A DNA stretch of 32,000 nt from Sinorhizobium meliloti (lineage in GTDB: Bacteria > Pseudomonadota > Alphaproteobacteria > Rhizobiales > Rhizobiaceae), in NCBI RefSeq assembly GCF_017876815.1, contig NZ_JAGIOS010000001.1:3000001-3032000 (forward strand). Reading direction: 5' to 3'. This document shows, in pieces, positions 8,814 to 15,250 of the stretch. Position 1 is the stretch's first letter, and each line of letters opens with the position of its first letter. Below the pieces are notes generated by a model that searched no databases, had not been told where the DNA came from, and worked only from the letters and a program-made list of their open reading frames with translations. The position numbers and the translations under genes were made by a program.

Positions 8814-9093
8814 GTCCGTCGACACCTTCACGTCACTGCGGCCACACATGGTGGATGGAGCGCCGCCTAACCGCTCCCGCGCTGAAGCTGCCAGCCGGCC
8901 CACTTCGTTGTCATTGCGGCAAGCCTAAGTGTTCGCGTTGAGAAATCAACCTTTTCATCCGGCGTCTGGCGCCGGCGGCGTATTCCGCCGTGACGCCCTC
9001 GCTGTACCGAGCACACGAACGGCGAAATCGACGAAATTCACTTTTGGTTAAGACCTCAATAACGATCCGGTAAGGTTGTGGGGATAATTGTCT

Positions 9094-9210
9094 GCCTGCG
9101 GCGGGCGACTGCCGCAGGTCCGGATCAGGTAGTGCGTGCCGGACCCGATATTCAGCAGAATAATCTGATCGCCGCACCCTTCCGTTCCAACGGTTGGGTG
9201 CGGCTTTTGC
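9094..9210 (+). ncRNA. candidate trans- or cis-acting small RNA (three hairpins ending in an intrinsic terminator)
   Basis: Hairpin 1 is 9094-9119 (CTGCGGC/GCCGCAG core). Hairpin 2 is 9117-9145 (GGTCCGG/CCGGACC). An AU-rich linker spans 9146-9170, and a terminator hairpin 9171-9204 is followed by TTTT. GATAAT at 9083-9088 could be a -10 box. No coding potential on this strand. Confidence 0.3.
9171..9208 (+). terminator. intrinsic terminator (plus-strand orientation; possibly bidirectional)
   Basis: GCCGCACCC-(16-nt loop with inner CCGTT/AACGG stem)-GGGTGCGGC is a perfect 9-bp GC-rich stem followed by TTTTGCATTT. Confidence 0.55.
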
Positions 9211-9276
9211 ATTTCCGGGGGAAGCGTGAAGAAGCTGCCCCGAAAAAGGGGGCGGTTTCGAACGCGACGTGGCGCT

Positions 9277-9420
9277 TTATCCGACGTTGGACGTTCGGAT
9301 GAGGCCGAGTGGGCCGACCGGCGCTTCCGCGACGACATTGCGGACGCGGGACTGGCCGTTCGGCGCCTTGGAGTTCCAGGCGATCTGAACGAAGTTGGGT
9401 TTGCCGAAGACGAACAGCAT
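9277..9420 (-). CDS. unannotated small ORF, 47 aa, unknown function
   Basis: MLFVFGKPNFVQIAWNSKAPNGQSRVRNVVAEAPVGPLGLIRTSNVG. By my hand count 40 of 47 codons end in G/C. An in-frame TAG lies 2 codons upstream of the ATG. CTATAT (an exact rhizobial -10 consensus) is at 9474-9479 on the minus strand, with ATTCAA 17 nt upstream. It falls below the length cut-off of the ORF track. Confidence 0.4.
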   Translation of the reverse strand: MLFVFGKPNFVQIAWNSKAPNGQSRVRNVVAEAPVGPLGLIRTSNVG

Positions 9421-9533: not shown

Positions 9534-9562
9534 CAAGCGTGCGAGAAATTTTCGCACGCTTG
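9534..9562. promoter_or_regulatory. 29-bp near-perfect palindrome between the small ORF and cobQ
   Basis: CAAGCGTGCGA-GAAATTT-TCGCACGCTTG has 11-bp perfect arms. It lies about 100 nt upstream of the cobQ start and about 35 nt upstream of the putative -35 of the small ORF. Confidence 0.4.
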
Positions 9563-9664
9563 AAGAAGGCCGGAAATGCACCGTGACCGCCGGTGACGCA
9601 ATCATGGCGGAATCGCGTCGGAACAGAGCTTTGCGGCGGGCGGTTTCGATGCTACGGGAAAGGC

Positions 9665-14341: not shown

Positions 14342-15250
14342 CTAACCGCGGCCCTTCTTCGTGCCTGTGTCCAGTTGCCCGTTCTTGCCGGTATCCTGGC
14401 CCTTCTTGCCGGTGTCCTGCCCCTTCTTGCCCGTGTCCTGCCCCTTCTTCCCCTTGTCGAGGCCACGCTTGCCCGGCTCGTTGCTGGGTGTCTTGCCCGG
14501 GCGGGGCGCCTTTTGCGGGCTTGCTCTTTCGGGCGGCCGCGCGCGTTCCGGCGCGGTCGGCTTGATCTCGACAGCGGCCGAAATACCGCAACTGCCGCTC
14601 ATGCTGCCGAAGGAGGCAGACAGTCTTTGGTCGCCCGAAAGAAAGGGCAGGGCCTTCCGGTTTCCGAGCGTCGCCAGTGTGCGGCGACCGGCCCTGTGCG
14701 TGTCCGTCATGGTTCCGTCGCGCTTTGCGATCACGCAATCGCAGCGTCGGGTGAGCTGCTGGCATCCCGCCGGGCCGCAGAACCGGGCCGCGCCCTCCAG
14801 GAGAACGATCGCCGTCGTTCCGTCATTGCCGATGTAGAAATCGAACACGGTTCCGCGTACGCCGATCGTTCCGGCAGGTGTCAGGATCTGATAGGCCGAG
14901 TGCTTCGAATTTCCGCTGATCCAGCGAAACGTGCCTTTGGCGGCGGCGACGGTGAGTTGCTGCACCGATTTCGAATCGTTGAAGACGAACTTGTCGATGA
15001 CGACGGAAGAGCCTGCCCCCACCGCCAATTTACTGCCGTCGCGGAACACGAACTGGCCGAGCCCGGATCTGGACGTGCTTATTCGCTCGTCCCGGTGAAC
15101 GGCGTCCCGCTCCACGAGCGGTCCGCCGCTGCCGGTGACCACCGTCCTGATCCGGACCGCTTCTCCAACCGGTTCGGCAGCAATTGTCGGTATGGAACCG
15201 TAAAACGCTGCGCCCAACACAGCGATTGCGGCACGACGCAAGTGAAACAT
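14342..15250 (-). CDS. FecR-domain protein with signal peptide and Lys/Gly-rich repeat tail
   Basis: The track ORF was trimmed to ATG 15250 (GGAGGG 6 nt upstream). The signal peptide is MFHLRRAAIAVLGAAFYGSIPTIAAEP. FecR-like blocks are GTFRWISG and TPAGTIGVRGTVFDF. The C-terminus is GKKGQDT x3. Confidence 0.8.
   Translation of the reverse strand: MFHLRRAAIAVLGAAFYGSIPTIAAEPVGEAVRIRTVVTGSGGPLVERDAVHRDERISTSRSGLGQFVFRDGSKLAVGAGSSVVIDKFVFNDSKSVQQLTVAAAKGTFRWISGNSKHSAYQILTPAGTIGVRGTVFDFYIGNDGTTAIVLLEGAARFCGPAGCQQLTRRCDCVIAKRDGTMTDTHRAGRRTLATLGNRKALPFLSGDQRLSASFGSMSGSCGISAAVEIKPTAPERARPPERASPQKAPRPGKTPSNEPGKRGLDKGKKGQDTGKKGQDTGKKGQDTGKNGQLDTGTKKGRG
14380..14452. repeat. 21-bp tandem repeat, about 3.5 copies, inside the 3' end of the FecR-domain gene
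   Basis: The copies are gttcttgccggtatcctggcc, cttcttgccggtgtcctgccc, cttcttgcccgtgtcctgccc and a partial cttcttcccc. They encode the GKKGQDT heptads. Confidence 0.85.

Follow-up and report, generated by a model that had tools for sequence, protein, structure and literature searches.

The window analysed here, a 32-kb stretch of Sinorhizobium meliloti DNA whose coordinates are used throughout unless strain 1021 is named, carries at about 9094-9208 on its plus strand a stand-alone small RNA (sRNA) gene, the same as SmelC488/Sm135 of S. meliloti. The gene occupies an intergenic region between two protein-coding genes on the minus strand, so that its orientation, as an earlier note made from the letters alone had proposed, is antisense to both neighbours. 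One neighbour, called proX in that note, encodes a substrate-binding protein that is best described as OpuAC-family (Pfam E = 2e-55) and corresponds to the ABC substrate-binding protein SMc04311 of strain 1021, whose gene is 999 nt long; the other is the 47-aa gene SMc04310. That a genuine sRNA gene under selection lies at 9060-9215 is very likely. As an sRNA candidate the element is not new: it stands in the S. meliloti catalogues of 2008-2010 and has been uncharacterised since. The features that are new with respect to the searched papers are (i) a structured, single-copy family that occupies one syntenic position in several genera and is absent from Rfam, (ii) a promoter that is better conserved than the RNA itself and has a CtrA-type box, and (iii) the position of a published CtrA peak on the sRNA.

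The window is 99.1% identical to the chromosome of S. meliloti Ak57 across 3.4 kb. Positions in strain 1021 (x) are converted to window positions (w) by w = 2138393 - x, with the start of SMc04311 (2129580, window 8813) as the anchor. The intergenic region between SMc04310 and SMc04311 is 463 bp long in both the window and strain 1021, and the dot-bracket string published for the 108-nt SmelC488 (Table S10) fits the window sequence, its last four unpaired bases being UUUU; the map between the two is therefore free of insertions and deletions. The same string puts a terminator of 9 + 4 bp at 9171-9204. SmelC488 was classed as a "trans-encoded sRNA, type 1" of 108 nt (Schlueter 2010, PMC2873474) and is equated in Table 4 of that paper with Sm135, an RNA predicted in 2008 and tabulated with a promoter call at 2129308, a terminator at 2129186, a length of 122 nt, and the entry "not tested" (Valverde 2008, PMC2573895). 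The neural-network promoter call of that prediction corresponds to 9085, within the -10 box, and its terminator position to 9207, in the U-tract, where it coincides with the 3′ end obtained by RNA sequencing (RNA-seq). The element in the window and SmelC488/Sm135 of strain 1021 are the same RNA, on the same strand and of the same extent, in closely related strains. The plus-strand, terminator-ended sRNA of about 110-150 nt expected in the earlier note thus has its counterpart in a published transcript of 108 nt from the same strand. The true 5′ end of SmelC488 is probably a few bases upstream of the contig start, which falls at 9101 within stem-loop 1. The searched literature holds no further mention of SmelC488 or Sm135 beyond PMC2573895 and PMC2873474, and a 2020 review of rhizobial riboregulation does not have SmelC488 in its table (PMC7143759).

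The anatomy of the gene (Table 1) agrees with the earlier description in its main parts: the GATAAT box, the two G+C-rich hairpins, the 25-nt A/U-rich stretch, and the perfect 9-bp terminator stem with its U-tract are all present, and the RNA-seq 3′ end at 9207 lies in that U-tract. Transcription would start at about 9094-9095. The plus strand of 9060-9215 folds with -70.3 kcal/mol, compared with -53.8 ± 3.7 kcal/mol for shuffled sequences (z = -4.5, with none of 200 shuffles as good), and the terminator half by itself reaches z = -5.2. The minus strand of 9060-9215 also folds strongly (z = -4.0); since both strands fold well, folding energy alone cannot assign the strand. Simple consensus scanners called no promoter and no terminator at the sRNA locus. 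The terminator was missed because its loop is above the 8-nt limit of the scanner and merely four consecutive T follow the stem, and the promoter was missed because the -35 region is poor. The weakness of the -35 region had been remarked on before and is real; a conserved CtrA-like box of the activator type overlaps it.

Table 1. Features of the SmelC488 locus in window coordinates, followed by further CtrA peaks near published sRNAs in strain 1021 coordinates.
Feature	Position	Strand	Basis or remark
Conserved promoter block, family consensus ATTCAtCTTTGgTTAAgctCtCaaTAACcATCCGGTAAcgaTGTcngGCTAaTTGT	9036-9093	+	column consensus, 83 sequences
CtrA-box-like site TTAAGACCTCAATAAC	9048-9063	TTAA-N7-ATAAC plus, TAT-N7-TTAAC minus	motif scan
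-10 box GATAAT (family consensus GCTAAT)	9083-9088	+	sequence, conserved column block
Covariance model R1 match	9092-9214	+	70 bits, E ~1e-14, full model length; only significant match in the window
Stem-loop 1, CCUGCGGC...GCCGCAGG, GCGA tetraloop	9095-9118	+	folds, family pairs
SmelC488 (= Sm135) contig	9101-9208 (2129185-2129292, minus, in strain 1021)	+	Schlueter 2010, Table S1 and Table 4
Stem-loop 2, loop AUCAGGUAGUGCGUG at 9124-9138	9117-9145	+	folds, near-invariant loop
A/U-rich linker CGAUAUUCAGCAGAAUAAUCUGAUC	9146-9170	+	S. meliloti-clade specific
Intrinsic terminator, perfect 9-bp stem GCCGCACCC/GGGUGCGGC and inner 4-bp stem at 9171-9204	9171-9214	+	
U-tract UUUUGCAUUU after the terminator stem	9205-9214	+	sequence
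CtrA peak and SmelC025	peak 207046; 5′ end 206977 (strain 1021)	minus	
CtrA peak and EcpR1 (SmelC291)	peak 1411567; contig starts 1411678 (strain 1021)	plus	
CtrA peak and SmelC337	peak 1518749; contig starts 1518791 (strain 1021)	plus	
CtrA peak and SmelC419	peak 1728294; contig ends 1728277 (strain 1021)	minus	SmelC419 classed as open reading frame

Homologous loci were fetched via relatives of the OpuAC binding protein, one genome per species, which gave 80 loci from Sinorhizobium/Ensifer, Pararhizobium, Shinella, Ciceribacter, and several members of "Rhizobium". In all 80, a homologue of 9040-9145 precedes the binding-protein gene in divergent orientation, and a blastn search with 9040-9280 matched its first ~105 nt in every one. 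The gene order is likewise kept: cobQ, the divergent 47-aa gene SMc04310, the sRNA convergent with it, and the divergent OpuAC gene. In most genera the RNA has a form of ~145 nt that comprises stem-loop 1, stem-loop 2, a variable stem-loop 3, a small hairpin, and the terminator; stem-loop 2 of this form has the loop AUCAGGUAUUGCGU, the small hairpin is GCCAUGCGUAUUUUGGC, and UUUUCGCGUUU follows the terminator. S. meliloti, S. medicae, S. saheli, and E. aridi have a short A/U-rich linker instead of stem-loop 3 and the GCCAUGCGUAUUUUGGC hairpin, which brings the RNA of this clade to 107-122 nt. The linker that the earlier note had singled out as the presumed seed is therefore there in S. meliloti, but in that role it is restricted to the S. 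meliloti clade. Two further variants occur: the S. fredii group (L033, L044, L053, and L069) keeps the promoter and stem-loops 1 and 2 and has a diverged 3′ half without a canonical terminator, and an Ensifer clade (L005, L008, L016, L019, L021, and L024) has an insertion of ~50-60 nt after stem-loop 2. Within stem-loop 2, 62 sequences agree without exception in GCGU and in the CCGG that flanks it, and the stem-loop 2 loop is the best candidate for a functional single-stranded element. The S. meliloti RNA is a local, shortened member of a single-copy Rhizobiaceae sRNA family.

This family has no counterpart in Rfam 15, which yields no family at the gathering threshold across the whole window and, at E <= 10 over a 1.1-kb region, chance matches alone (mir-9198, and BSR0602 with 13.7 bits against a cut-off of 191 bits). 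SmelC488 shares its stem-loops, intrinsic terminator, and intergenic location with the alpha-proteobacterial sRNAs that Rfam does hold (alpha-r7, r9, r14, r15/AbcR, r35, r45, suhB, and others), none of which it matches at the gathering threshold.

The structure proposed for the S. meliloti RNA is conserved in relatives, and with covariation. The primary data set comprises 62 distinct sequences with the ~145-nt form, aligned by MAFFT alone and without fitting to structure; four helices were set by hand, their pairs were counted, and the sequences were then realigned with a covariance model. In the MAFFT alignment, 90.7% of the cells are paired and changes on both sides are found in 13 of the 24 pairs (103 cells), a level reached in none of 500 shuffles, while controls with slid partners give at most 24 such cells. 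The covariance-model alignment (81 matches) contains 15 covarying pairs with 141 cells. The support is spread over the molecule: both-side changes affect four of the six pairs of stem-loop 1 (92-93% of cells paired) and six of the eight pairs of the terminator stem (95% paired), the outer pairs of stem-loop 2 covary (for example CG:25, UA:23, and GC:11 in the model alignment), and a stem-loop 3 hairpin with no fewer than 5 bp is present in 62/62 sequences, whose stems differ considerably in sequence. RNAalifold applied to the MAFFT alignment recovered parts of stem-loop 1 and the terminator and nothing more, because clade-specific shifts misalign stem-loops 2 and 3.

The same comparison assigns the strand. 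G-U cells outnumber A-C cells by 139 to 17, and in every homologue with a canonical terminator the T-tract that follows it lies on the plus strand. Selection has therefore acted on the plus-strand RNA. A covariance model (R1) built from the MAFFT alignment of the other genera, without any sequence of the S. meliloti clade, finds the S. meliloti RNA along the full length of the model (Table 1). Each locus has one significant match to R1, with the exception of L035, which has a weaker second match of 36 bits, and L042, which is truncated at a contig end and was found at a relaxed threshold only.

The earlier note had allowed for another origin of the hairpins, namely intergenic palindromic repeats (REP/RIME-like) that are transcribed incidentally. 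G+C-rich hairpins in a rhizobial intergenic region would suit such elements, and transcribed REP elements have indeed been reported (PMC2873474). The copy number speaks otherwise. A collection of 72,556 plasmid records, which includes some chromosome records, contains one copy each on a 3.7-Mb S. meliloti chromosome, on three Sinorhizobium sp. chromosomes, and on one Shinella chromosome, and none on any true plasmid; no related element occurs elsewhere in the window. With one place per chromosome in five chromosome-scale records, a fixed syntenic position across genera, and no entry for SmelC488 in the table of REP-related transcripts of PMC2873474, the repeat origin is refuted and has next to no probability left. 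The single copy per chromosome by itself rejects a REP/RIME-type repeat.

A small protein encoded at the locus is just as improbable. Two open reading frames (ORFs) exist mechanically, one of 74 codons at 9078-9302 (plus strand) and one of 88 codons at 8911-9177 (minus strand). Homologues range from 107 to 205 nt, however, with insertions and deletions that break the reading frame, and as these length differences do not keep the frame, the element is not coding. The plus-strand ORF would moreover have to cross the terminator, and the substitutions track base pairing rather than codons.

The best-conserved stretch across the genera lies outside the RNA and is the promoter block, in which S. meliloti and Sinorhizobium sp. 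K101 agree at 100% of the positions, in contrast to its varying flanks. It contains GGTTAAGACCTCAATAACGATCCGGTAAG, in which three half-sites, TTAA, ATAA(C), and GTAA(G), stand ~11 bp apart; the first two make up the CtrA-box-like site, and the third phased half-site, GTAAG, is at 9070-9074. Their family consensus is TTAA-N7-(A/C)TAACCAT-N-GGTAAC. The CtrA box of Caulobacter is TTAA-N7-TTAAC, with the half-site TTAACCAT. For S. meliloti, the published CtrA consensus is TAA-N7-TTAAC (PMC3616915). The pattern TTAA-N7-HTAAC has a single match in 32 kb, at this site, against 0.01 expected, and the two matches to TAA-N7-TTAAC with at most one mismatch are both this site, one per strand; for the latter, looser pattern the window shows no enrichment (2 found, 2.65 expected). 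Of the 82 loci, 70 retain the motif at the corresponding position. Its centre is ~40 bp upstream of the predicted transcription start and overlaps the poor -35 region, a geometry that suggests an activator-dependent promoter.

CtrA occupancy of the locus is published. ChIP-seq (chromatin immunoprecipitation sequencing) of CtrA in S. meliloti yielded 198 peaks genome-wide (Table S4 of Pini et al. 2015, PMC4433202), of which one, at chromosome position 2129268, is annotated "SMc04310 op | SMc04311" (PMC4433202). The peak maps to ~9125, within the sRNA gene. Fragments in the immunoprecipitate had a mean length of 300 bp (PMC4433202), and the chance of a peak in a given 300-bp stretch can be estimated at ~1% from 198 peaks in a genome of ~6.7 Mb. 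Neither SMc04310 nor SMc04311, the only genes of the locus for which the published arrays give values, responds to cell-cycle phase or to CtrA depletion (PMC4433202). The authors' assignment of the peak was to these two unresponsive protein-coding genes; the peak probably belongs to the sRNA promoter. The site is absent from the list of Schlueter 2013 because that motif search covered only the upstream regions of protein-coding genes, on the direct strand (PMC3616915). Taken for itself, control of SmelC488 by CtrA is probable, and both the dependence of its expression on CtrA and the sign of this dependence are inferred.

The same evidence could be read at the level of DNA, with the element acting as a CtrA-bound control region of the OpuAC operon or of the 47-aa gene and the transcript being a by-product. 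In favour of this are the promoter block as the best-conserved part, the occupancy of the region by CtrA, and the complete linkage to the binding-protein gene (80/80 loci). The position of the box does not fit well: it is ~135-150 bp upstream of the mapped leader start of SMc04311 (window 8915) and, in other genera, ~260 bp further away. Neither flanking gene responds to CtrA depletion or the cell cycle, and the compensatory changes, the G-U excess, and the conserved terminator all mark selection on an RNA. A purely DNA-level role is thus very unlikely.

Expression data come from the catalogue of 2010. Two 3′ ends are recorded for SmelC488, 2129186 (9207, in the U-tract) and 2129246 (9147), as well as a 5′ end at 2129243 (9150); the 3′ end at 9147 and this 5′ end both derive from the sample enriched for processed RNA (PMC2873474). 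The linker, in which the ends at 9147 and 9150 fall, is probably a processing site. A 50-mer microarray probe within SmelC488 gave M values of 2.84 and 3.01 after 15 and 45 min of heat shock, where M compares the small (<200 nt) with the long RNA fraction on a small-RNA microarray (PMC2873474).

The best overall explanation is that the locus encodes a conserved sRNA of the SmelC488 family that is controlled by CtrA and acts in trans, to which we give a probability of roughly 0.82. In the mechanism envisaged, (i) CtrA would bind the box at about -40 and control transcription, activation being likelier than repression; (ii) transcription would proceed from the -10 box without a usable -35 element and end at the intrinsic terminator; (iii) the RNA would pair in trans with mRNAs encoded elsewhere through the conserved loop of stem-loop 2; and (iv) the A/U-rich stretch and the U-tailed terminator may form a module for chaperone binding and processing. 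The anatomy of the RNA fits a trans-acting sRNA, in that it has a stand-alone gene, a conserved unpaired loop, an A/U stretch, a U-tailed terminator, and a processing site. Judged from the letters, the A/U-rich stretch beside the U-tailed terminator is compatible with Hfq dependence. For base pairing as the mode of action the chances are about even, and the seed would be the stem-loop 2 loop.

Several points weigh against this explanation. On the side of CtrA, the box has one mismatch to the consensus, the peak summit is 60-80 bp from the box and within the gene, the motif has no match in 10 of the 82 loci and matches only elsewhere in the locus in two more, and the alignment shows five of those loci to have lost the TTAA half on the upstream side. 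The sole recorded induction of SmelC488 is by heat shock, no obvious hallmark of CtrA control. As to expression, read coverage is low, with a mean of 12 and solely in the sample enriched for processed RNA, and neither a Northern blot nor 5′-RACE (rapid amplification of cDNA ends) is listed for SmelC488 (PMC2873474). With regard to targets, the sRNA shows no excess complementarity to the initiation regions of the three neighbouring genes in 34-68 species, and duplex energies of sRNA segments with the ctrA leader (580 nt including the start codon, from Ak57) do not exceed those with shuffled leaders (z between -0.3 and +1.0). Finally, only one of the three UG(C/U)GU loops survives in the S. meliloti clade, and the function of its RNA may differ from that of the longer form.

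The complementarity result covers two comparisons. Full-length duplex folding against the initiation regions of the three neighbours gave energies equal to those of shuffled controls and is uninformative, and in these regions exact complementarity to the stem-loop 2 loop extends, at its longest, no further than for reversed or complemented controls across 68 species.

UG(C/U)GU is found in the loops of stem-loop 2, stem-loop 3, and the GCCAUGCGUAUUUUGGC hairpin (e.g., L038:3337-3481), and in the S. meliloti clade in stem-loop 2 only. The recurrence of this motif invites a different mode of action, in which the RNA is a sponge or scaffold whose UG(C/U)GU loops would hold multiple molecules of a single RNA-binding protein. 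RNAs of the ~145-nt form carry the motif in three distinct loops, as UUGCGU in stem-loop 2, as GUGCGU, GUGUAU, or GUGUGU in stem-loop 3, and as AUGCGUAUUUU in the linker hairpin, and the lack of a complementary target nearby would be no surprise for such an RNA. However, no protein partner is known for a motif of this kind, and the S. meliloti clade retains one copy, yet its RNA is strongly conserved within the clade. Repeated loop motifs also occur in sRNAs that act by base pairing, of the alpha-r14/NfeR1 type. A sponge or scaffold role is accordingly unlikely, and pairing in trans remains the preferred mode for SmelC488.

Among known systems, CcnA of Caulobacter crescentus (PMC8959179) resembles SmelC488 in being a small non-coding RNA with a CtrA box in a CtrA-occupied promoter. 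SmelC488 differs from it in position, since it is at 2.13 Mb in strain 1021, away from the replication origin; in its loops, since it has no C-rich loop and the loop of stem-loop 1 is G-rich; and in pairing, since its complementarity to the ctrA leader of S. meliloti is not significant. By these three measures SmelC488 is at most a functional analogue of CcnA and not a relative, and at this crude level a CcnA-like feedback on ctrA is not supported.

Closer in kind are the S. meliloti sRNAs EcpR1 (SmelC291, PMC4414408) and GspR (SmelC775, PMC5928217), which like SmelC488 are chromosomal, stand-alone, structured trans-sRNAs of ~100-170 nt. Both act upstream of cell-cycle regulators (dnaA, gcrA, and ctrA) and respond to stress, and they are the only cell-cycle sRNAs of S. 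meliloti named in the review (PMC7143759). GspR is reported to be restricted to Sinorhizobium, in contrast to the SmelC488 family, which is found in several genera. EcpR1 also has a CtrA ChIP peak, ~110 bp ahead of the 5′ end published for its contig. If CtrA drives SmelC488, the latter would be the first CtrA-output sRNA in rhizobia, as EcpR1 and GspR act on the regulators instead.

Other CtrA peaks with unresponsive flanking genes are situated a short way upstream of 5′ ends or contig starts published for sRNAs of strain 1021 (Table 1; PMC4433202, PMC2873474), and orphan CtrA peaks may often be sRNA promoters. A more far-reaching proposal is that SmelC488 is a CtrA-dependent, cell-cycle-timed riboregulator of the Rhizobiaceae, either as an unrelated RNA in the slot of CcnA or as a multi-loop (UGCGU) RNA of a new kind that relays the output of CtrA to genes for motility, the envelope, or transport. 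This proposal is speculative and rather doubtful at present; if true, several of the orphan peaks in the CtrA ChIP-seq of S. meliloti would be sRNA promoters. The family-wide conservation and the link to CtrA are themselves modest additions to what the catalogues hold.

The remaining observations concern the surroundings of the gene. The additional hairpins that the earlier note had pointed out toward proX, at 8937-8990, are present but unremarkable in their folding (z = -1.6 for plus and -2.3 for minus). They lie between two divergent promoters and are specific to the S. meliloti clade, with an A-rich tract in their place in other genera. On the other side, a hairpin at 9240-9262 (GCUGCCCC GAAAAA GGGGGCGG) stands ~30 nt past the sRNA terminator. 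Its counterpart in other genera is a strong stem with an A-run before it on the plus strand, and because of this A-run it is taken as the terminator of the convergent minus-strand 47-aa gene. The sRNA and the 47-aa gene have separate terminators that do not overlap.

SMc04310 itself (MLFVFGKPNFVQIAWNSKAPNGQSRVRNVVAEAPVGPLGLIRTSNVG), the 47-codon ORF at 9277-9420 on the minus strand that adjoins the sRNA, is a real small protein. Its homologues show 66-100% identity in almost all ~80 loci (L081: 45%) and invariably separate cobQ from the sRNA. Neither Pfam nor NCBIfam has a family that it matches. Upstream of cobQ, the Rfam search detected no cobalamin riboswitch. In the same region, the alignment with Sinorhizobium sp. 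K101 (L002) collapses after ~9545, and this break at ~9545-9600 suggests an insertion or replacement in one lineage. Farther along the window, a long ORF region contains three tandem 21-nt copies (TGCCCGTTCTTGCCGGTATCC-like, 86% identical) at 14376-14438.

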